NCBI GenBank assembly: GCA_964583985.1
Contig: CAZOYD010000045.1
Coordinates: 1 to 29,581 of the forward strand
DNA length: 29,581 nucleotides
Direction: 5' to 3'
Source: an uncultured archaeon
GTDB lineage: Archaea; Asgardarchaeota; Lokiarchaeia; Sigyniarchaeales; SOKP01
Shown here in pieces: positions 1-9,839 of the stretch (its first letter is position 1; each line of letters opens with the position of its first letter). The notes beneath the pieces are model-generated. The model ran no database searches. It saw only the letters and a list, made by a program, of their open reading frames with translations, and had not been told where the DNA came from. A program made the translations under genes and the position numbers.

Positions 1-240
<240 letters not shown>

Positions 241-255
241 ACGTGATTTGTTATA

Positions 256-265
256 TTTTTATAAA
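256..265 (-). promoter_or_regulatory. Putative TATA box of the rRNA promoter (TTTATAAAAA)
   Basis: Archaeal TATA consensus about 200 nt upstream of the 16S 5' end. The TTTATAAA core is palindromic, so orientation is inferred from context. Confidence 0.45.
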
Positions 266-391
266 GAAGGGATTCATTTTAAATTTTGCCATTTTTTCAC
301 AGTATAGGGGTTTAGTTTTTAATTTTCGTAGTTTAAAAATGTACATTATAATTTAGAATTATAAATTTAATGATTGAGCAGGAAGATAAAA

Positions 392-1393
392 ATGGAATTA
401 AAAGAAAAGATAAGTATTCACTTGGATCAAATAAAGCAACTCAAAGGTGTTGAAAATGCTGTACTAACTCAAAGGGATGGAAATCCCATTCAATCAGCAG
501 GTGTCTGGTTTTCTAAAGATGAGATTTTTAATGTAAGTTCTGCTGCAAGCGCCATATTTAACGTTGGAATTCATCTCCATCCAGATGATTTGAAGTATAT
601 TTTAATAGAAGGTAAAAAAGCAAAAATATTAATTGCTCCCTTAAACAGCCCTTTGCACCATTCATTGAACAAGATACTTGAACAACAAGGAATATTTGAT
701 AACAAACATGAATATTTTATCGCTATTACAGCTCAACCAAATACGAATCTTGGAGGCATTTTTTTACAAACCAGTGAATGTTTGAAAAAAATTAAAACAT
801 CTCTAATAACCTCTGGAGAATCATTTAAACCGCCCTTAGTACAGTTTAATGATGAAAAAATTCAAGATATCATTCGTGGTTTTGATGTAAAAGAAAATGG
901 AGTCTTTGATTTTCAAATCAACTCATTCTCGCTTAGCTTATCTGAATATATCTCTTTAGAGTTAAGAAAGATACTTAATAACTTTTCAGTGGCAGTCCCA
1001 GATATGTCTCATGCATATATAACTCTTGAGGGAGGGTTCATCGCTTCACAAATATTAAATAGAAGTAATAGATTATATAAAAATTTAGATAATATCTCTG
1101 CAATGACTTATTCCTTGTTCCAAACAGCAAACCGTTGTGCATGGCTCTTAAAGAAAATGAATGCCGAAACAATCTTACTTGACTGTGAAAATGCTTTTCA
1201 ATTTATCTATGGTCTTGGAAACGCAATTTTTAGCACTGAAATTGCTAAAGCGAGACAAAAATTAGGGTTGATAAGATTAATCCTTCCACAATTCTCAAAA
1301 AAAATTAGCTATCTCATAAAGGAAGCGTCTCAAATTCAAGATCATAAATCATTCGATATTAGATCATTATTAGGAGAGCTGATAATTAAATAA
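392..1393 (+). CDS. Tandem (double) Roadblock/LC7, MglB-like protein
   Basis: Two Roadblock patterns: GVENAVLTQRDGNPI...SSAASAIF...ILIEGKKAKILI...NLGGIF, and VPDMSHAYITLEGGFIAS...ISAMTYSLF...LLDCENA...KLGLIRL. ATG 392 preferred over the TTG at 374. Confidence 0.88.
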   Translation: MELKEKISIHLDQIKQLKGVENAVLTQRDGNPIQSAGVWFSKDEIFNVSSAASAIFNVGIHLHPDDLKYILIEGKKAKILIAPLNSPLHHSLNKILEQQGIFDNKHEYFIAITAQPNTNLGGIFLQTSECLKKIKTSLITSGESFKPPLVQFNDEKIQDIIRGFDVKENGVFDFQINSFSLSLSEYISLELRKILNNFSVAVPDMSHAYITLEGGFIASQILNRSNRLYKNLDNISAMTYSLFQTANRCAWLLKKMNAETILLDCENAFQFIYGLGNAIFSTEIAKARQKLGLIRLILPQFSKKISYLIKEASQIQDHKSFDIRSLLGELIIK

Positions 1394-1396
1394 CAT

Positions 1397-1404
1397 AAGG
1401 TGAG
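1397..1404 (+). promoter_or_regulatory. Shine-Dalgarno-like site AAGGTGAG
   Basis: GGTGA core 5 nt before ATG 1408, supporting co-transcription with the upstream gene. Confidence 0.6.
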
Positions 1405-1407
1405 TAT

Positions 1408-2304
1408 ATGGATTTTTTTAACCTAATAGAAGATTTAAAGAAATCTGATTCTTCATTAATTTTTTATTGTTTATTGAACAGAATCCCTATCATTATAACT
1501 GGAGAGGATTCTGACATTATCGATAATTTATTAATCGATTTATCGGATTTAATGCATTTCCGAAAAGAGGTTGTTTTTTACACTGATTTTATTTCAAATT
1601 CAGAATATCAAGAGCTTTTAAAAAATGAAGCTATCGATTATAACTCTCAAAGAACTCATATACGATGTTCTTGTGATGTGTCTGGTAAATCCTTGATGGA
1701 AATCGATCAATTCAACTCCTGGATTATGGGTTTTGAACTGGATAATGACAAGCGTAAACTCGAGAATTTTATAAACTTTATAAAAGAAAAAATAGATTTT
1801 TTCTTAAATATTATGATTTTCTCAAAATCTATATCAATTTCCTGTGTAGGTTTAAATCTAAGACAGATAGATCTTACATTTGAGGAAAATATTTTACAAA
1901 AAATTTCACGAGATACGGAAAAAGCTATAGTAAAAATGAAAAGAGTTCTTCTAGAAAAAACTAAACCTGAGAAACTTGATAAAGAACTTATAAGAACTTT
2001 ACTCGATTTTGAAGTTGAAAAGAAAGAATTAAAAAAGAATATTTTAAAAAATGAAATACAAAAATTCTATTCCGGTTCAAAGAGATCATTTTTTATTTTA
2101 TCAAAACTCAGCTTACTAAATAGTTTTGAGATGGCAGTACGAATTGGAAACAAAACATTGCTAGAAATAATTGATTATGATGAGGCTACCATTGGAAGAA
2201 TGGTTTCCTTTATCGAAAAGGAATGGGGAGAGGATTTTTCCAATTTATTTGAAAATGGGAAAAAAGTGAACGCATTGGATAGTATGCAATCATTATGGGG
2301 TTAG
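1408..2304 (+). CDS. Hypothetical protein, possible DENN/folliculin-type core domain
   Basis: 298-aa ORF with SD. LLNRIPIIITGEDSDIIDNLLIDLSDLMH and later SWIMGF resemble the cDENN helix-strand-helix pattern. The ORF is solid; the function is tentative. Confidence 0.55.
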   Translation: MDFFNLIEDLKKSDSSLIFYCLLNRIPIIITGEDSDIIDNLLIDLSDLMHFRKEVVFYTDFISNSEYQELLKNEAIDYNSQRTHIRCSCDVSGKSLMEIDQFNSWIMGFELDNDKRKLENFINFIKEKIDFFLNIMIFSKSISISCVGLNLRQIDLTFEENILQKISRDTEKAIVKMKRVLLEKTKPEKLDKELIRTLLDFEVEKKELKKNILKNEIQKFYSGSKRSFFILSKLSLLNSFEMAVRIGNKTLLEIIDYDEATIGRMVSFIEKEWGEDFSNLFENGKKVNALDSMQSLWG

Positions 2305-2312
2305 TGAAAAAA

Positions 2313-2906
2313 ATGATATATGATTATGAAAATAAGATATTACAAATAAAAATTGTTTATTATGGTCCAGCTATGTCTGGGAAAACGACATCTATTAAAA
2401 AGTTATTTTCACATTTTAACAGACAAAATGATTTAGAATCGATTGATAACTCAGTTGGTAGAACGTTATTTTTTGATTTTGGAGTCTTAAACTTTCGAGG
2501 TGCGGAATGGGGATTAAAATTTTTGATATATTCAGCTACAGGACAAGATTTCTATGCTAGCACTCGACCAGCAACACTTAATGGCGTTGATGGTATAATA
2601 TTTATCGTTGATTCTCATACAAGTTGTCTAAGACATAACCTAAGATCATGGAAGGAATTAAATACGATGCTTGGTTCTGAGTTTTTCAATATTCCTGTGG
2701 TAATATGTATGAATAAAGATGACATTAATAATGATACTAAGATGAGTGAAATAGAGTTTAAAGATCATATAGATATTAATACTCTTAAAAATGTATACGT
2801 TCAAAAAACTGCAGCTATTAGAGGATATGGAATAATAGAAGCATTTAATCGAATGATTAAATTTATTTTTCCTCAGTTAACCTTAAATATGAACATGACT
2901 AATTAA
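2313..2906 (+). CDS. MglA-like small GTPase
   Basis: IKIVYYGPAMSGKTT (G1), GRTLFFDF (switch I with Arg), ATGQ (G3), GVDGIIFIVDS, NKDD (G4), TAA (G5). ATG 2313 fits MglA N-terminal length better than 2295. Confidence 0.9.
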   Translation: MIYDYENKILQIKIVYYGPAMSGKTTSIKKLFSHFNRQNDLESIDNSVGRTLFFDFGVLNFRGAEWGLKFLIYSATGQDFYASTRPATLNGVDGIIFIVDSHTSCLRHNLRSWKELNTMLGSEFFNIPVVICMNKDDINNDTKMSEIEFKDHIDINTLKNVYVQKTAAIRGYGIIEAFNRMIKFIFPQLTLNMNMTN

Positions 2907-2907
2907 A

Positions 2908-3090
2908 TTATTTTTCAATTTTCTGATACATATTTTTAGAGATCCGCTTTATATAACCTTGTTTATAAAATTGGTTTAATAAATTCCTTACTTTTCGAAC
3001 TTCTTGCGCTTCGATTCTTAATGCATCCATTAATTGGAAAATCGAAAATTGGTTAGGTATTTCATTTTTAATTGTATTATAAGTTCCCAA
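2908..3090 (-). CDS. Small winged-helix protein
   Basis: 60 aa, TTG start. FSIFQLMDAL...VRNLLNQFYKQGYIKRISKNMYQK is a typical recognition helix plus beta wing. Confidence 0.65.
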   Translation of the reverse strand: MGTYNTIKNEIPNQFSIFQLMDALRIEAQEVRKVRNLLNQFYKQGYIKRISKNMYQKIEK

Positions 3091-3369
3091 AAAATTTCAC
3101 TTTTCAACGTATATTATATATTAAGGATAATGTAAGAAAATATAAATAAATTTTTAAATATACACAAAAGTTATTAGAAATTGTTATTGGTTTTCATAAT
3201 CCTCAACGTAACTATAATTTATCATTCCTATTTTATAGGTCATTTAATTATATAATTTTCATAGGATTTTTACAACCAAAGGGAATTCCTCAAATATTAT
3301 TATAAAAACATTTAGGATGCTAACTATATTTTTCTATTTATTATTTTACCCAATAAAGATAAACCTTTA

Positions 3370-4125
3370 TCAAAATTTAGGACTCTCTTTCCTAAAACTA
3401 TCCCCTATAGGCGCTTTTCCATCTCCATATATTTGATACAGACCGATTCTCCTTGCGCATTCACTAAAACTACGATAAACATCTCTTTGTTTTTCATATA
3501 ATGCACATGTTTTATATATTATTGGATTCCAAGTAGATAATTCATTATCTGGAGTGAACCATAGCTTTTCTTCTTTTAATATTTGTTTAAAATCTTCTTC
3601 TCCAATTATCTCGTTTAAATCTTGTTTATTTAACATTATAACTAAGGGAATTTGCTTAATTAATCTGCATTCTGGAGATTTTTTTGTCCCGTATTGAGAA
3701 ATTCCTGAGGAGTTCTGGTTATTTATTTCCTTTTCTTCCACAAATGTGGTAACTTTTTTTAATTCTTTAAGTGATTCTATATTATCTTCAAAAAAGTGAG
3801 TTTGAGAATCAACTACGAATATAACTCCATCAGTTCCTTTAAAAATTCGCTCTCTTAAAGGTGAAAAACGACTTTGTCCTGCTACAGTATATACATGGTA
3901 AAAAACTTTATTTTGTTTGGTGGATTGAAAAAATCCTCTATCAAAATACAATGTAGAACCACTAGCCATACAAATTTTTTTTAATTCTGCAACAGGAGTA
4001 ATATCTTTATCTTGTTCTCTTGTAAGTCTATATAAAGTATCAACAACTGTTGTTTTCCCTGATCCTCCCATACCCCAGTAGAGGATTTTAATGTATATCT
4101 TATGATCTGGCAGAAATCGAACCAT
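3370..4125 (-). CDS. Second MglA-like small GTPase
   Basis: IKILYWGMGGSGKTT, STLYFD, YTVAGQ, GTDGVIFVVDSQ, NKQD, TCA. Strong SD (AAGGAGG) upstream of the ATG. Confidence 0.9.
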   Translation of the reverse strand: MVRFLPDHKIYIKILYWGMGGSGKTTVVDTLYRLTREQDKDITPVAELKKICMASGSTLYFDRGFFQSTKQNKVFYHVYTVAGQSRFSPLRERIFKGTDGVIFVVDSQTHFFEDNIESLKELKKVTTFVEEKEINNQNSSGISQYGTKKSPECRLIKQIPLVIMLNKQDLNEIIGEEDFKQILKEEKLWFTPDNELSTWNPIIYKTCALYEKQRDVYRSFSECARRIGLYQIYGDGKAPIGDSFRKESPKF

Positions 4126-4327
4126 TAAAGCGCCTCCTTAAAATAAAATTTTATCATCTAATTAGTCTAATATTAGATTTACATAATCAAAATTATTATT
4201 TAATAATAAGTTCTTTTAAACTTTATCATTTGATATTAATAAGTAATAATAGAATCAAACATTTATAATTCTTTTTCAGAAAACTCAGTTCATTAATTAT
4301 TTGGAAAATAACTTTATTATACTTTTT

Positions 4328-4564
4328 CTAAAAGTCAACTAAATAATTTCCTTTTCTAATATGATAATTACACCAGATAATTAGTTGATTATAACTTTCT
4401 CCGCAAAATTCTTTACGTATGATGACATTAATAATATCAGAATACATAATTGGGCGATTCTCTTTGATTATCTTCTTTAATTGGGTATATAATTCCTTTA
4501 ATAAGTCCATATTTTCTATTGGAATGTTTTCTATAAATTTTATTTTTTCATATATTTTATTCAT
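4328..4564 (-). CDS. Hypothetical 78-aa helical protein
   Basis: ATG start preceded by GGAGTGA; plausible composition; no recognisable family. Confidence 0.55.
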   Translation of the reverse strand: MNKIYEKIKFIENIPIENMDLLKELYTQLKKIIKENRPIMYSDIINVIIRKEFCGESYNQLIIWCNYHIRKGNYLVDF

Positions 4565-4801
4565 AAAAGATTCACTCCATTCTGATAATTGTTTTATTTG
4601 TAATTAATCAAATATCTTTTCAGTTGAACAATATAAAGTCCAATTTTTTTATTTTCAACTAACCCTCTCTGATAGTATCCAGAGTTCATTTCTATTCAGA
4701 AGTATTGAGAGTTCTAATCTTCGAATCCTTGATATGGATTATTCAAATAAAGGGATTTAAAATTTTATACTTTAAACCCTAAAAGTTAAAGGTGACAAAC
4801 T

Positions 4802-5827
4802 ATCATAAATAGAACATATTATCAAAAAAATTTTAAAGAATTATGTCCTGAATGTAGTGGAAAGATTATAAATACTAGTTACGAAATGATATGCAAGGAA
4901 TGTGGATTAGTTTTAGATAATTTATTCAAGGAATCTTCCTATGTTTTTAACAATACTGATGCAAAAAGTAATTTAAATAAACAATATGTTGCATTAGGCA
5001 ATAGATCTGACTTTATAGGCGGATTAGGTACCTTTATAGATTATGAAAATTCAAAATATCTTAAGGATAAATTTGGGAGATTACTACCCCCTCAAGAGCA
5101 AAAATTATACAGAAGACTTAAGAAAAATTATTCTCAATTCCTAAGGATTAAAAATCATGAAACGGAATACAGGATTTTTAATATTTTAAATAAGATTGCG
5201 TTATATCTTAATTTAAATCGAAATATTCGAAATAACGCCGCATATTACTACAAGAAAATCATAAAAAATGAGGAAAAAGTAATAAATAACATTTCGTTAA
5301 TCGCTTTTTGTATTTTTTATGCTGCTAGAAAAGAGCACCACAATGCACCATTAACAATCAATGAAATTTCAAATGCATTTCAAAATTTTGGACATCGAGT
5401 TAATCCAAGGCTAATTTTAAGAGATGGCATTAAATATAAGAAATATTTGAATAATCAAACAATACCACATAAAAGCGAAGATTATTTAATCAGGTTAATT
5501 AATGAAATTATTAATCATAAAGAACTTGAAAGTCGTTTTATAAGTAAAGGCATTAATTGGTCTAAAGAGCAGTTTCAAAATCATTTAACACTTAAATGCC
5601 GAGAAGTATTAAATAAATTATCTGTTTGGCATCGTGGAGGTAGAAATCCATTCATCTTGACGGGAGCAATAATCTATTTAGCTGATAAGCTTCTAGCGAG
5701 AGAATTCAATCAAAAAGCGATTTTAACTCAAAAACTGATTTCAGAAGCAACTAGTATAGCAGAATATTCAATACGAGATCATTATGTTAATTTATTAAAA
5801 CCGAACTTTTTCAATAAAGATTGCTAA
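4802..5827 (+). CDS. Divergent TFB/TFIIB-family protein (Zn ribbon plus two cyclin folds)
   Basis: In-frame CPECSG (4844-4861)...ICKECG Zn ribbon, cyclin repeats, GRNP motif and C-terminal TQKLISEATSIAEYSIRDHY helix-turn-helix. Start extended upstream of the track's ATG 4886 (see findings). Confidence 0.82.
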   Translation: MINRTYYQKNFKELCPECSGKIINTSYEMICKECGLVLDNLFKESSYVFNNTDAKSNLNKQYVALGNRSDFIGGLGTFIDYENSKYLKDKFGRLLPPQEQKLYRRLKKNYSQFLRIKNHETEYRIFNILNKIALYLNLNRNIRNNAAYYYKKIIKNEEKVINNISLIAFCIFYAARKEHHNAPLTINEISNAFQNFGHRVNPRLILRDGIKYKKYLNNQTIPHKSEDYLIRLINEIINHKELESRFISKGINWSKEQFQNHLTLKCREVLNKLSVWHRGGRNPFILTGAIIYLADKLLAREFNQKAILTQKLISEATSIAEYSIRDHYVNLLKPNFFNKDC

Positions 5828-6053
5828 TAATGCTCAAATAGAACCTTATTATTTTCTTTTTCATAATTTTTAAAATAAATTTTATGATATTAGGATTAAA
5901 CTTTCATAGATACTTATTATCAACTCTTAAAAATTAATATCCTAATCTTCCTTTTAAAATTAAAGAAAGAAATTGACGATACCAAAAACATTATTTTATT
6001 AAAATTATTAAAAGAATTAATATAAAATATATTATGTGCTATTTATTTAAATT

Positions 6054-6160
6054 GCTTCCGTAGTGTAGTCCGGTCAAATTAAACCTTAAATAACTTACGG
6101 AAAGACTAAGCATGCGAGGCTCTCACCCTCGTGACCCGGGTTCGAATCCCGGCGGAAGCA
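6054..6160 (+). tRNA. tRNA-Glu(CTC) with 32-nt intron at position 21/22 (intron 6078-6109)
   Basis: Acceptor GCTTCCG/CGGAAGC, anticodon arm CGAGG-CTCTCAC-CCTCG, T arm CCGGG-TTCGAAT-CCCGG. The D arm (GTGT/GCAT) is restored by removing 6078-6109. No encoded CCA. Confidence 0.93.
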
Positions 6161-6196
6161 TTATGATTACAGCTTGACTCATTATTCAACTATCTT

Positions 6197-6550
6197 TTAA
6201 ATCCTTTCATATAGATCCAAAAGTTTTTGTAGTAAATTTAAATATACTTCAATATTTGTTATTTGACTTTCATTTTTTATAATTTCAGAAATTTCTTGTA
6301 TTTTAAACGAAAGTATTTTTTTTAGACTAATTAAACTACTATCATCAAGTTTTCTATTTGAATCATCATTTTCATTTAAATATTTCTTATTTAACTTCAA
6401 GGATTCATCCGATAATTTATCATCAAATATTACGGGTCTATCACATATTGGGCAAAACATTTCACCGTTTTTCTTTTTAAAAATAGGATTATTACATACA
6501 GGACAGGATAAATTTAACATTTTATGACCTGATCTCAACATATTTGCCAT
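6197..6550 (-). CDS. UPF0148 / Sjogren-scleroderma autoantigen p27-family Zn-ribbon protein
   Basis: MANMLRSGHKMLNLSCPVCNNPIF...FCPICD matches the family's M-x-x-L-L-x-G-x-x-M-L-x-x-x-CPxC...CPxC pattern. Confidence 0.8.
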   Translation of the reverse strand: MANMLRSGHKMLNLSCPVCNNPIFKKKNGEMFCPICDRPVIFDDKLSDESLKLNKKYLNENDDSNRKLDDSSLISLKKILSFKIQEISEIIKNESQITNIEVYLNLLQKLLDLYERI

Positions 6551-6639
6551 TTTCTTTGTGTCTTGTTGAATCTTTCTCTCATCTCTTAAACAACATTTGA
6601 TATTTTTAAGTTATAAGGAAATTAATCTAAGTTAAATGA

Positions 6640-6834
6640 TTATTCTTTTTCTCTTATCTTCAATAAAGTTACTATATATCCGGAAATCCGATTTCGTAAA
6701 TGTTTTGAATCAGCTTCAATGAATTTATCTAATAATTTCTTATTATATTCAAAATCAGTTGTAAATACATCTGGATATTTATTAATTAATTCTTTTGATA
6801 CATTTTTAATTAAAATAGTTCGAACTTTTCCCAT
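6640..6834 (-). CDS. rps17e: 30S ribosomal protein S17e
   Basis: MGKVRT...FTTDFEYNKK...SKHLRNRISGYIV signature. Confidence 0.96.
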   Translation of the reverse strand: MGKVRTILIKNVSKELINKYPDVFTTDFEYNKKLLDKFIEADSKHLRNRISGYIVTLLKIREKE

Positions 6835-6941
6835 AATCTCATCTCAAGTTTTATTTATTAATCTACTTCAAATAGTTATTTCCAAAATAAATTTTTTTTG
6901 GATTTTGTATGACTTTTTATTCTTTGATTTGAATAAATTAC

Positions 6942-8144
6942 GTGTTTAGAAAAAATATATTTTTGGCTTTTTTATGCATTGGCCTAGTTTTTTTGTTTAT
7001 TCCTCAATTCACATTAGGATGGCCTATTTGGGATATAATATCCCTTCAATCAGATAAAGATACTTATTACAACTATGAAAATATGGAAATTAATGCGTCA
7101 TGGTATTTGTATTATGATAACCCAGAGATAGATTTCGTGCAAATTCATCTCTTAAATGAATCTGAGGATATTATTTGGAAATCACCAATATATAATAATA
7201 CAGGATATAATAATGATAATTGGATAATTTATATCCCTAATTTAAATATTAAAATTAAAAATGACTCTACGTTAATATTTGTAAAAGTTTGGATTTCTTA
7301 CTTTAATCATGTTCATGGATATACATATGACTTGGAATTCCTCTCCATTAAAATATTAAAAGCAAATGTTACTTGTGAATTATATGGATTTAAAAACTCT
7401 ATGACTTATGGCGAAAAAATTTCATTTATAGCTAAATTTTTTGAAAAAAATAATAGTTTACTTTTAATTAATACAACTATTAAGTTTCAGATCGAATTTA
7501 AGTTAGCGATCTTGTATCAATTTGAATTTGAGACTAATTTATCAGGTTGTATTTCTGTAAATATCTCCACAATCTCACATTTATCAATTGGAGTGAACAA
7601 TTTGAAATTTTTAATTATAGGGCATGAGATATATAATAATTCTCAATTTTCTTATAAATTAAGAGTAGAAAAAATACAAATATGCGGGGAAATAATTAAT
7701 ATTAAGGGAATTGATAAGAATAGGGGAACAATTGAATTAGAAAGTAATTTTTATTACTTTTTCAATGAAAGTATAATTCCTTTAGACAATTCTCTAGTCT
7801 TAGCGCATATATATCAAGGAAATTCACTAAAATATTCAAAAATCTTGAATACTAATATTGTAGGGTCAACTGTATTCACCTTTTCGCTTGGATCAATTAA
7901 TCTAGAAAAAATTTACACGAAAGTGAATATTACGATTATTTATAATGGTACTCAATATCTAAATAGCAAAATTTTATCAAGAACTATTACTATAAATGAA
8001 TATTTGTATCAAAATGCTTTAGATGCTATGGAGTTAATATATTTATCCAGTTTCTTCTGTTCAATGATTATATTCGGACTCATAGTTGTTAATAAAAGAA
8101 GAAAAAATGAGAAAAACTTAGCACACCTTTGTATCAAAATCTAA
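6942..8144 (+). CDS. Secreted, C-terminally anchored surface protein (beta-rich, Ig-like repeats)
   Basis: N-terminal signal peptide, beta-strand-rich body with many N-x-S/T sequons, YNGTQY motif, and C-terminal TM helix followed by a basic KRRK tail. Confidence 0.7.
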   Translation: MFRKNIFLAFLCIGLVFLFIPQFTLGWPIWDIISLQSDKDTYYNYENMEINASWYLYYDNPEIDFVQIHLLNESEDIIWKSPIYNNTGYNNDNWIIYIPNLNIKIKNDSTLIFVKVWISYFNHVHGYTYDLEFLSIKILKANVTCELYGFKNSMTYGEKISFIAKFFEKNNSLLLINTTIKFQIEFKLAILYQFEFETNLSGCISVNISTISHLSIGVNNLKFLIIGHEIYNNSQFSYKLRVEKIQICGEIINIKGIDKNRGTIELESNFYYFFNESIIPLDNSLVLAHIYQGNSLKYSKILNTNIVGSTVFTFSLGSINLEKIYTKVNITIIYNGTQYLNSKILSRTITINEYLYQNALDAMELIYLSSFFCSMIIFGLIVVNKRRKNEKNLAHLCIKI

Positions 8145-8343
8145 ATTACAAATCATATTAACCGACAAAAAAAACAGGTATACAATATATGCAAGATTCT
8201 TCATACCACGATAAATCTATAGATTATAATGGTTATTTTTATCATAATTAGGCTTATTCTTACAAGTTCATAATATAAAAAATTATGACTCTGTTTTTGA
8301 TTATAAACAATCATCATCTTATTTCTAATATTAAATTTTTTGG

Positions 8344-9558
8344 TTGAGTGTAATGATGATCGATTATTTTGATGAATTATTAAAACAACCTTCATTATTC
8401 AAGGATGAGAGTAAGCTTGATATCAATTTTGTACCAACAAAATTACTCCATAGAGAAAAAGAGTTATATCTTTTATCCCAACTTTTCTTAGTTCTAATAA
8501 CAAACCCAAATTCAGCATCAAGAAAAATTTTAATAACAGGAAAAACAGGAGTGGGAAAAACTGCGACGGTGAAATTCTTTGGAAAACTGATTGTAGACGC
8601 CGCAGTTAAAAGACAAGCTTTTATCCAACATATTCATATAAATTGTCGTAAAGAAAGAACTAGTTATAAGGTCCTAATAAAAATCATGACAACAATAAAC
8701 CCTAAGTTTCCAAAAAGGGGATACTCACCTCAAGAATTATTGGAGATAATATTGGAATATCTTAACAATTATGAATTACATTTACTAATTGTTTTAGATG
8801 AACTCAGTTATTTAATTAATGATGGAGGAGATCTAATTTATTCTCTGACAAGATTAAACGATGATTCCATAAATTTAAAACAAAGAGTATCAATAATTGG
8901 GATTGTTAGAGATATCAGCTGTTTAAGCAAATTAGATGCTAGTACTATGAGTACTCTTCAAAGAAATATAATTGATTTTAAGAATTACTCTAAGGAAGAA
9001 GTATTTGACATATTAAAATACAGATCGCAAATTAGTCTGATAAATAATGCAATCCCCGATGATTTAATGAACTCTATTACAGAATTAGTCCATATTAAAG
9101 GTGATATTAGGTATGGTTTAAATTTAATATGGCGAGCTTGTAAGATTGCTGAGAGAAAACATTTGCGACAGATTGATGCCGAATGTATACGTTTGGGTAA
9201 TCAAGATCTAATTCCATTTTCTGCTCAAGATATTTTGACTTCTTTAAATGAACAAAAATTGATCTTTCTTCTTTCAATAACTCGAGGATTAAAGCAAAGT
9301 GGCAAAACTCAAATTTCTATTGCAGAATGCATTAGTATCTATAAAATGATTTGTGAAAACGTGGAAATTAAATGTCGGTCATATTCTCAATTGTGGAATT
9401 ATCTTCAAGACTTCAAACGAGACAATTTTATTTCAGTTCTAATCCAAAGTGAATCATTTAAAGGTAGAAAAGGATTAATTGAAATAACAGAATTCTCATT
9501 ATTCAAACTTGAAACGGAATTAATTAGAATTTTAAAATCTAAGGGGTTTTTTGTATGA
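8344..9558 (+). CDS. cdc6: Cdc6/Orc1 replication initiator (AAA+ with winged helix)
   Basis: FVPTKLLHRE, Walker A GKTGVGKT, HINC, Walker B LIVLDE, GDIR sensor II. True start may be ATG 8353 or 8356. Confidence 0.93.
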   Translation: MSVMMIDYFDELLKQPSLFKDESKLDINFVPTKLLHREKELYLLSQLFLVLITNPNSASRKILITGKTGVGKTATVKFFGKLIVDAAVKRQAFIQHIHINCRKERTSYKVLIKIMTTINPKFPKRGYSPQELLEIILEYLNNYELHLLIVLDELSYLINDGGDLIYSLTRLNDDSINLKQRVSIIGIVRDISCLSKLDASTMSTLQRNIIDFKNYSKEEVFDILKYRSQISLINNAIPDDLMNSITELVHIKGDIRYGLNLIWRACKIAERKHLRQIDAECIRLGNQDLIPFSAQDILTSLNEQKLIFLLSITRGLKQSGKTQISIAECISIYKMICENVEIKCRSYSQLWNYLQDFKRDNFISVLIQSESFKGRKGLIEITEFSLFKLETELIRILKSKGFFV

Positions 9559-9839
9559 TAATTGATCAAAATAATAATATTGAAGATATATTAGGTTCTC
9601 GGGCGAAAGTTAGGATTTTGAAAACATTAGCTGTAAATAATGAACTTTCTATAAGTCAAATAATTAAAAATACCAGATTAAACCATTCGAGTGTAATAAC
9701 TCATTTGAATCATTTAGAATTACTTGACTTAGTACAAGAGAAAAATTTTGGACGCATTAAGATTTTCAGATATAAGAATGAAAACTTAAAAGCAAAGAGT
9801 TTAAAGAAATTTATTGAGATTTGGGAAGGAGATTATTGA
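9555..9839 (+). CDS. ArsR-like winged-helix protein, translationally coupled to cdc6
   Basis: ILGSRAKVRILKTL...LSISQII...HLNHLELLDLVQEKNFGRIKIF; ATGA overlap with the cdc6 stop. Confidence 0.8.
   Translation: MIIDQNNNIEDILGSRAKVRILKTLAVNNELSISQIIKNTRLNHSSVITHLNHLELLDLVQEKNFGRIKIFRYKNENLKAKSLKKFIEIWEGDY

Follow-up and report, generated by a model that had tools for sequence, protein, structure and literature searches.

We describe here a three-gene locus in the DNA of an uncultured Asgard archaeon (Lokiarchaeia; Sigyniarchaeales; SOKP01). The stretch analyzed, referred to as the window, is contig CAZOYD010000045.1 of assembly GCA_964583985.1, positions 1 to 29,581 of the forward strand, with a G+C content of about 27%. 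Near its beginning, three co-oriented open reading frames (ORFs), g1, g2 and g3, are tightly packed on the plus strand and encode a predicted double Roadblock protein, a predicted DENN-fold protein and an MglA-type small GTPase (Table 1). The gap between g1 and g2 is 14 nt (1394-1407) and includes AAGGTGAG, while that between g2 and g3 is 8 nt (2305-2312). An earlier reading made from the letters of this DNA, here called the sequence-only reading, had placed three genes at these positions, in this orientation and with this spacing, and its coordinates and gaps are correct. We set the starts of g1 and g3 at 392 and 2313, respectively, because the N-termini of orthologues align there; all 24 aligned g3 orthologues begin M-[IL]-x-x-[YWFR], matching 2313. 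On the same grounds a TTG at 374 was rejected as the start of g1, as was an ATG at 2295 for g3, which would overlap g2.

Table 1. Features of the three-gene locus and its surroundings. Positions are nucleotides of the window unless given as amino acids (aa) of the encoded protein.
Feature	Position	Strand	Length	Description or basis
g1	392..1393	+	333 aa	ATG at 392 to stop at 1393; two predicted Roadblock/MglB-like domains
g1 Roadblock domain 1	about aa 1-142			AlphaFold2 (AF2) model and structure search
g1 inter-domain linker	aa 147-181			low confidence in AF2 model
g1 Roadblock domain 2	about aa 181-314			AF2 model and structure search
g1 C-terminal helix	aa 323-331			short, conserved, after second Roadblock domain
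g2	1408..2304	+	298 aa	predicted core-DENN and downstream-DENN fold, disordered tail
g3	2313..2906	+	197 aa	MglA-family small GTPase, by sequence
16S rRNA gene, first 51 nt	1..51	-		Rfam SSU_rRNA_archaea model 1-51, E 2.1e-8; cut by contig end
Small ORF	2908..3090	-	60 aa	convergent on g3; weak winged-helix-like matches
Second MglA-like GTPase	3370..4125	-	251 aa	Pfam Arf E 2.7e-13
TFIIB-like protein	4886-5827	+		Pfam TFIIB repeat E 2.1e-5
Weak tRNA	6093-6160	+		Rfam 30.7 bits against a 29-bit cut-off

Judged by its sequence, g3 belongs to the MglA family and is closer to MglA than to Arf, Rab, Ras or Rag. Pfam returned generic Arf/Ras matches (Arf E 2.6e-12), and a phmmer search of the Protein Data Bank (PDB) placed Thermus thermophilus MglA (E 3.9e-24) and Myxococcus xanthus MglA (E 4e-23) first, the next-best relatives being Arf1 (E 1.2e-9) and a Thorarchaeota Rab (E 7.8e-5). 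The protein carries the P-loop GPAMSGKT, the switch-I segment GRTLFFDF, the G3 motif SATGQ and the G4 motif NKDD. GRTLFFDF aligns residue by residue with ERTLFFDF and DRTLFFDF of the solved MglA proteins, the segment that holds their intrinsic arginine, and SATGQ aligns with MglA TVPGQ. Across 24 orthologues the P-loop SGK, R50, T76-G77-Q78, N134-K135 and D137 are invariant, and the first G3 column holds S or T, not Asp, in every one. With these catalytic motifs preserved, g3 looks like an active MglA-like switch.

The neighboring g1 is, in its AF2 model (predicted local distance difference test, pLDDT, 79), composed of two alpha-beta-beta-alpha-beta-beta-beta-alpha units, which is the Roadblock topology. 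Pfam matched Robl_LC7 to the first domain alone (aa 10-86; E 4.5e-7; 29.9 bits, cut-off 23), leaving the second undetected. Exhaustive structure searches found both halves similar to MglB/Roadblock structures, at Z 13.1-13.7 and a root-mean-square deviation (rmsd) of 1.5-1.9 Å. For the N-terminal domain the best matches were MK-D1 Roadblock3 (Z 13.7, 115 residues at rmsd 1.5 Å), followed by M. xanthus MglB (Z 13.5). For the C-terminal domain it was T. thermophilus MglB (Z 13.1), with an alignment over 132 of 133 residues. The model thus makes g1 a probable pseudo-dimer in one chain, both of its Roadblock domains being MglB-like. Its C-terminus (window 1355-1393) forms a conserved short helix with the pattern F-D-I-x-x-L-L-x-E-L.

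The middle gene, g2, was not recognized by curated models. Searches of Pfam and NCBIfam, DENN-type models included, gave no match to the window's g2, and NCBIfam returned nothing useful for any of the three proteins. About 320 relatives were found in a collection of 5.8 billion proteins, nearly all 289-311 aa long; the named ones belong to Asgard metagenome-assembled genomes (MAGs) and carry the label 'hypothetical protein'. Among 1.84 billion cluster representatives, 89 relatives were recovered. The protein opens with the motif quoted by the sequence-only reading, LLNRIPIIITGEDSDII..., and has WIMG further on. These motifs coincide with the family's best-conserved columns, with R25, P27 and R52 invariant or nearly so and W105 nearly invariant. 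In an alignment of 41 sequences, the invariant or nearly invariant charged residues are R25, R52, R82, E74 and E159.

The AF2 model of g2 built on that alignment (pLDDT 90; predicted template modeling score 0.85) divides into three parts: aa 1-150 form an alpha/beta core of five strands, 157-273 make up a helical domain, and a disordered tail ends the chain. Strands at 28-32, 53-57, 83-87, 105-110 and 132-138 alternate with helices, and only helices follow across 157-273. As modeled, this is the architecture of a core-DENN (cDENN) domain, a five-stranded alpha/beta three-layer sandwich, joined to an all-helical downstream-DENN (dDENN) domain. A Foldseek search of the PDB gave no match at E <= 0.001, and its ranking was ambiguous, with folliculin at rank 7-8 (E 0.016, probability 0.98) amid P-loop ATPases. 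Because Foldseek left folliculin and the ATPases mixed, we turned to VIA-align to separate them, aligning the model exhaustively to 48,161 representative chains. The six best matches were all DENN modules, spanning model residues 1-275: the folliculin C-terminal domain (Z 12.8, 186 of 199 residues), the same domain within the FLCN-FNIP2 complex (Z 12.8), DENND10 (Z 11.6), SMCR8 (Z 11.1), C9orf72 (Z 10.6) and DENND1A (Z 9.6). Secretion ATPases came after them at Z <= 9.3, mostly over the N-terminal core.

Weak sequence signals point the same way. The Pfam model Folliculin_C, whose cut-off is 27 bits, gave sub-threshold matches to two homologues, P0125, a Helarchaeota protein (aa 5-62 on profile positions 4-62, E 4.8e-4, 20.2 bits) and P0137 (E 0.015, 15.3 bits). 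Both are in register and fall on the N-terminal helix-strand segment that the sequence-only reading had singled out. Among named clusters of the Atlas, the language-model feature neighbors of g2 were its own cluster, in which 12% of members are tagged C9orf72-like, a eukaryotic Folliculin_C/SMCR8_C cluster (0.92) and C9orf72 homologues (0.90); SPA/Avl9/DENND11 clusters were also among them. In an Atlas fold search, the Thorarchaeota cluster of the family itself (TM 0.82) came up, with nothing besides it except weak ATPase rows.

The DENN targets align to g2 from its first residue at the start of their own cDENN domains (folliculin from 346, DENND10 from 157, DENND1A from 170), and g2 therefore has no N-terminal longin (uDENN) domain. 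As modeled, g2 thus shares its core-DENN and downstream-DENN fold with folliculin, with SMCR8 and C9orf72 and with the DENND proteins, minus the longin. A search for longer forms of the family (546-2000 aa) found none, which is weak evidence, and Pfam recognized no domain in the additional segments of relatives of intermediate length (323-434 aa). With no fused forms found, there is no Rosetta-stone support. The C-terminus of g2 (window 2254-2304) is a disordered tail (pLDDT <50) whose final D-x-x-x-S-L-W-G is kept across distant orthologues. Both this SLWG tail and the C-terminal helix of g1 look like putative docking elements.

The arrangement of the three genes is conserved. At 52 g2 loci, 50 of them outside the window's own assembly and together covering at least 12 genome families, g1, g2 and g3 follow one another on one strand without exception (52/52), with g2 identity falling as low as 24%. 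Their spacing ranges from 1-nt overlaps to about 100 nt and is mostly below 30 nt. This recurrence is far beyond chance. With five candidates scored per genome, a g2 profile located the family in 230 of 399 genomes of the phylum, usually as one copy, and in 65 of the 89 high-quality ones. Named members come from Lokiarchaeota/Promethearchaeota, Helarchaeota, Odinarchaeum yellowstonii LCB_4 and Asgardarchaeia, from Hermod-, Hod- and Heimdallarchaeota MAGs, and from a Thorarchaeota cluster.

These results bear out much of what the sequence-only reading had proposed. Its two Roadblock units in g1 are present in the model, each at Z of about 13 to MglB/Roadblock structures. Its MglA assignment for g3 agrees with the best solved relative and the invariant catalytic motifs, and the N-terminal and WIMG motifs that it quoted for g2 are in the protein. 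It had called the middle gene DENN-like and suggested comparing 1408-2304 with DENN, folliculin-C and SMCR8 structures; the comparison returned folliculin at Z 12.8 and SMCR8 at Z 11.1 within six top matches that are all DENN, and the sub-threshold Folliculin_C matches in two homologues and the language-model neighbors concur. It had also held that a middle protein without a structural match to a DENN core, or a three-gene order not conserved across Asgard genomes, would speak against it. Since a DENN match and a conserved order were both found, the proposal stands on these two points.

Outside the operon, the window begins with a fragment of a 16S rRNA gene that is transcribed away from g1, the two lying head-to-head with g1 starting 340 nt off. 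As they diverge, both promoters must lie within the AT-rich spacer of 340 nt at 52-391. In the window's genome family and in a second family belonging to the same order, every locus tested (L041, L042, L043, L049-L052, L005, L007, L018, L022 and L053) shows this head-to-head layout, with the 5' end of a complete or partial 16S gene about 340-400 nt upstream of g1. Loci from ten further genome families, Odinarchaeum among them, were tested and lack it. The rRNA linkage is therefore lineage-specific. The same 16S linkage accounts for the many contigs that start some hundreds of bases upstream of g1. The assembly (G000) also contains the region a second time, on contig C19 at 44600-54462 (loci L002, L053 and L054), collinear with window 47-9789 at 82-88% nucleotide identity and reaching the contig end. 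It carries the 16S rRNA, g1-g3 and downstream genes, with protein identities of 94, 88 and 86% for g1, g2 and g3, respectively. This copy is either a co-binned relative (estimated contamination is 5.25%) or a large duplication including an rRNA operon.

Downstream of g3, the small convergent ORF had only sub-threshold Pfam matches (HTH_69 E 0.021) and, by tblastn, has copies 50-90% identical at loci within the window's genome family and none at more distant ones. The second GTPase, also convergent on the operon, has the G3 motif TVAGQ, a switch-I segment GSTLYFDR in which Ser replaces the arginine of g3, and an insert before NKQD; copies 59-90% identical lie beside the operon, in this convergent position, throughout the same genome family and only there. 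The ATG-initiated ORF of the TFIIB-like gene includes only the end of the zinc ribbon. The tRNA is the sole Rfam match at gathering threshold in the window.

Taken together, the trio is in our view probably a small-GTPase switch, g3, with g1 and g2 as its regulators; the assignment of GTPase-activating protein (GAP), guanine nucleotide exchange factor (GEF) and scaffold roles between g1 and g2 is much less certain. We propose a model where g1 would give, in one chain, the two-Roadblock platform that the MglB homodimer gives in bacteria. A single g3-GTP would dock on g1, and hydrolysis would be accelerated as g1 sets in place Arg50 and Gln78, which are intrinsic to g3. By joining this platform, g2 would complete a split longin-DENN module, with the Roadblock part supplied by g1 and the DENN part by g2. 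There g2 might be an exchange factor for g3 in the manner of DENND1, or else serve to scaffold and localize the complex, like the DENN domains of FLCN-FNIP and C9orf72-SMCR8. A GAP role for g1 on g3 is suggested by homology and by adjacency in all loci, and its platform role is drawn from work on MglA and MglB (PMC10933270, PMC3521125, PMC13408092), including the mechanism of the MglB dimer on MglA and the relationship of longin to Roadblock domains (PMC3521125, PMC13408092). The part given to g2 would follow from DENN biology, backed by its conserved operon linkage with a GTPase.

Several considerations weigh against this model. The binding of g1 and g2, and the GAP and GEF roles, are things we infer. 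A three-chain complex prediction (g1 with g3, and g2 as the scored partner, each with an alignment and with no controls) gave 0.21 and 0.23 against a mark of 0.32, which carries no weight either way as to binding. The longin domain is where eukaryotic FLCN and SMCR8 carry their catalytic GAP arginine; g2 has no longin, and those mechanisms are therefore not simply transferable. The DENN homology of g2 rests on fold, weak sequence matches and language-model features, as curated models and the PDB profile search went unmatched: when PDB sequences were searched with a HMMER profile built from the g2 family, no DENN protein came up at E up to 10. Ferritin helices (E 0.0025) were the only PDB matches of that profile and were set aside as spurious. 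The DENN core itself is close to a minimal P-loop NTPase fold; the secretion ATPases reach Z 9.3, only 3.5 below folliculin. Further, with five candidates scored per genome, the g2 count is zero in several well-sampled genome families (0/31, 0/22, 0/12 and 0/12), so the module is not universal in Asgard archaea.

Resemblance to ATPases raises the question of whether g2 could be a degenerate P-loop/RecA-like domain of the secretion-ATPase kind with a helical appendage, convergent on the DENN shape and serving some other role beside an ordinary MglA/MglB pair. GspE, FlaI, PilB and HP0525 do come after the DENN modules in VIA-align, at Z 9.3-7.8, secretion and pilus ATPases dominate the Foldseek and Atlas fold lists, and no Pfam DENN-type model reaches threshold. 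Such matches are expected, because the DENN core has a minimal P-loop-NTPase-like topology (PMC3521125). They cover mostly residues 1-150, whereas the DENN matches extend through the helical domain to 275. A Walker A motif (GxxxxGK[ST] after strand 1) is missing from 41 of 41 family members, the weak sequence matches point in register to Folliculin_C and not to ATPase families, and the language-model neighbors are all DENN-superfamily families. We consider an ATPase origin highly improbable. It is harder to decide what a DENN-fold g2 would do. It may act as a scaffold or effector, binding the g1-g3 pair or dimerizing, and not as an exchange factor, with the Roadblock platform supplying all catalysis-related regulation. 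The DENN domains of FLCN-FNIP2 and C9orf72-SMCR8 act as dimerizing scaffolds, and the best matches of g2 are folliculin, DENND10, SMCR8 and C9orf72 (Z 12.8-10.6) versus 9.6 for the Rab-GEF DENND1A, but Z gaps of 1-3 among DENN subfamilies do not assign function. An MglB Roadblock platform can carry both GAP and exchange-promoting activity by way of its C-terminal helix, which the conserved short helix at the end of g1 recalls (PMC13408092, PMC10933270). The conserved charged residues of g2 could equally form a surface for contacting the GTPase, and we regard a pure scaffold as possible but rather doubtful.

A broader alternative is that the module senses growth or nutrient state, like folliculin-Ragulator-Rag, with its expression tied to ribosome synthesis through the divergent promoter region shared with the rRNA. 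Archaea are not known to have a TOR (target of rapamycin) pathway, which counts against it, and g3 is of MglA type, not Rag type. An analogy to FLCN and Ragulator was drawn by Liu et al. (bioRxiv 10.1101/2020.10.19.343400), and the head-to-head closeness of the operon to the 16S 5' end in two families of one order would fit. Adjacency does not show co-regulation, however, and the linkage is confined to that lineage, making such a sensor improbable. A GTPase switch with a Roadblock and a DENN-fold regulator thus remains the reading we favor.

The module itself is already known. Liu et al. (bioRxiv 10.1101/2020.10.19.343400; Nature 2021) predicted an operon of Roadblock, small GTPase and DENN genes "conserved in most Asgard archaea", termed its products a LAMTOR1-like Roadblock, a small Rab-like GTPase, and also a DENN domain protein, and proposed the last as a folliculin-like exchange factor, part of a GEF-like module. 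Judged by that text description, the window's locus, with the same three protein types in one putative operon, is a member and not a new discovery. The sequence-only reading had presented the trio as a three-part module joining bacterial-type and eukaryote-type components; the joint conservation of an MglA GTPase with Roadblock and DENN-fold proteins holds, and its novelty does not, given publication in 2020-21 (Liu et al.). Relative to what the published text describes, we refine the GTPase from Rab-like to one that matches MglA far better than Rab or Arf, the Roadblock protein to probable tandem, fused MglB-like domains, and the DENN protein to a predicted cDENN plus dDENN without longin, and we add the head-to-head 16S rRNA gene within the window's order. 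Our literature search found no later paper characterizing the Roadblock-DENN-GTPase operon. Tran et al. (PMC10933270) reported that Asgard GTPase genes generally lie outside operons with Roadblock or longin genes, to which g1-g2-g3 is therefore a notable exception.

Set beside the bacterial MglA-MglB polarity switches of M. xanthus and T. thermophilus, the locus shares a GTPase with a switch-I arginine and Ser/Thr for the Asp of DxxGQ, and a neighboring gene encoding Roadblock domains, g1 matching MglB at Z 13.1-13.5. Bacterial MglB is a homodimer, whereas g1 appears to fuse its two Roadblock domains in one chain, and the g1-g3 pair has a DENN-fold gene inserted that bacterial mglBA operons lack. 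With the eukaryotic tripartite DENN modules (folliculin/FNIP, SMCR8/C9orf72, DENND1 and DENND10), the shared features are the modeled cDENN core and dDENN helical domain of g2 and its being encoded with a small GTPase and Roadblock-superfamily domains. Unlike them, the g2 chain has no longin, a role that would need g1 in trans, and the GTPase partnering it is of the MglA type instead of Rab, Rag or Arf; in sequence, its resemblance to these modules falls below family thresholds.

In eukaryotes, complexes of DENN with longin/Roadblock domains control Rab, Rag and Arf GTPases in membrane traffic and nutrient signaling, and their origin bears on the rise of eukaryotic cell organization. It is tempting to speculate, and we do so tentatively, that the trio preserves a pre-eukaryotic state of DENN, in which cDENN/dDENN is a protein on its own and acts in trans, together with an MglB-type pseudo-dimer, on a GTPase of the MglA type, the SLWG tail and the g1 helix serving in docking. 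DENN might in that case have originated in archaea as the third member of an MglA/MglB switch, and the eukaryotic longin-DENN proteins by fusion of the regulators and retargeting to Rab, Rag and Arf. To the published operon this locus adds detail: MglA-type chemistry, a probably fused MglB-like platform, a DENN protein modeled without longin and a 16S linkage at the level of the order, for a family whose g2 homologues are still labeled 'hypothetical protein' in public databases. The operon is one of few known to link an Asgard GTPase genetically to proteins likely to regulate it, and it thereby defines the partners to be tested together, three small soluble proteins.

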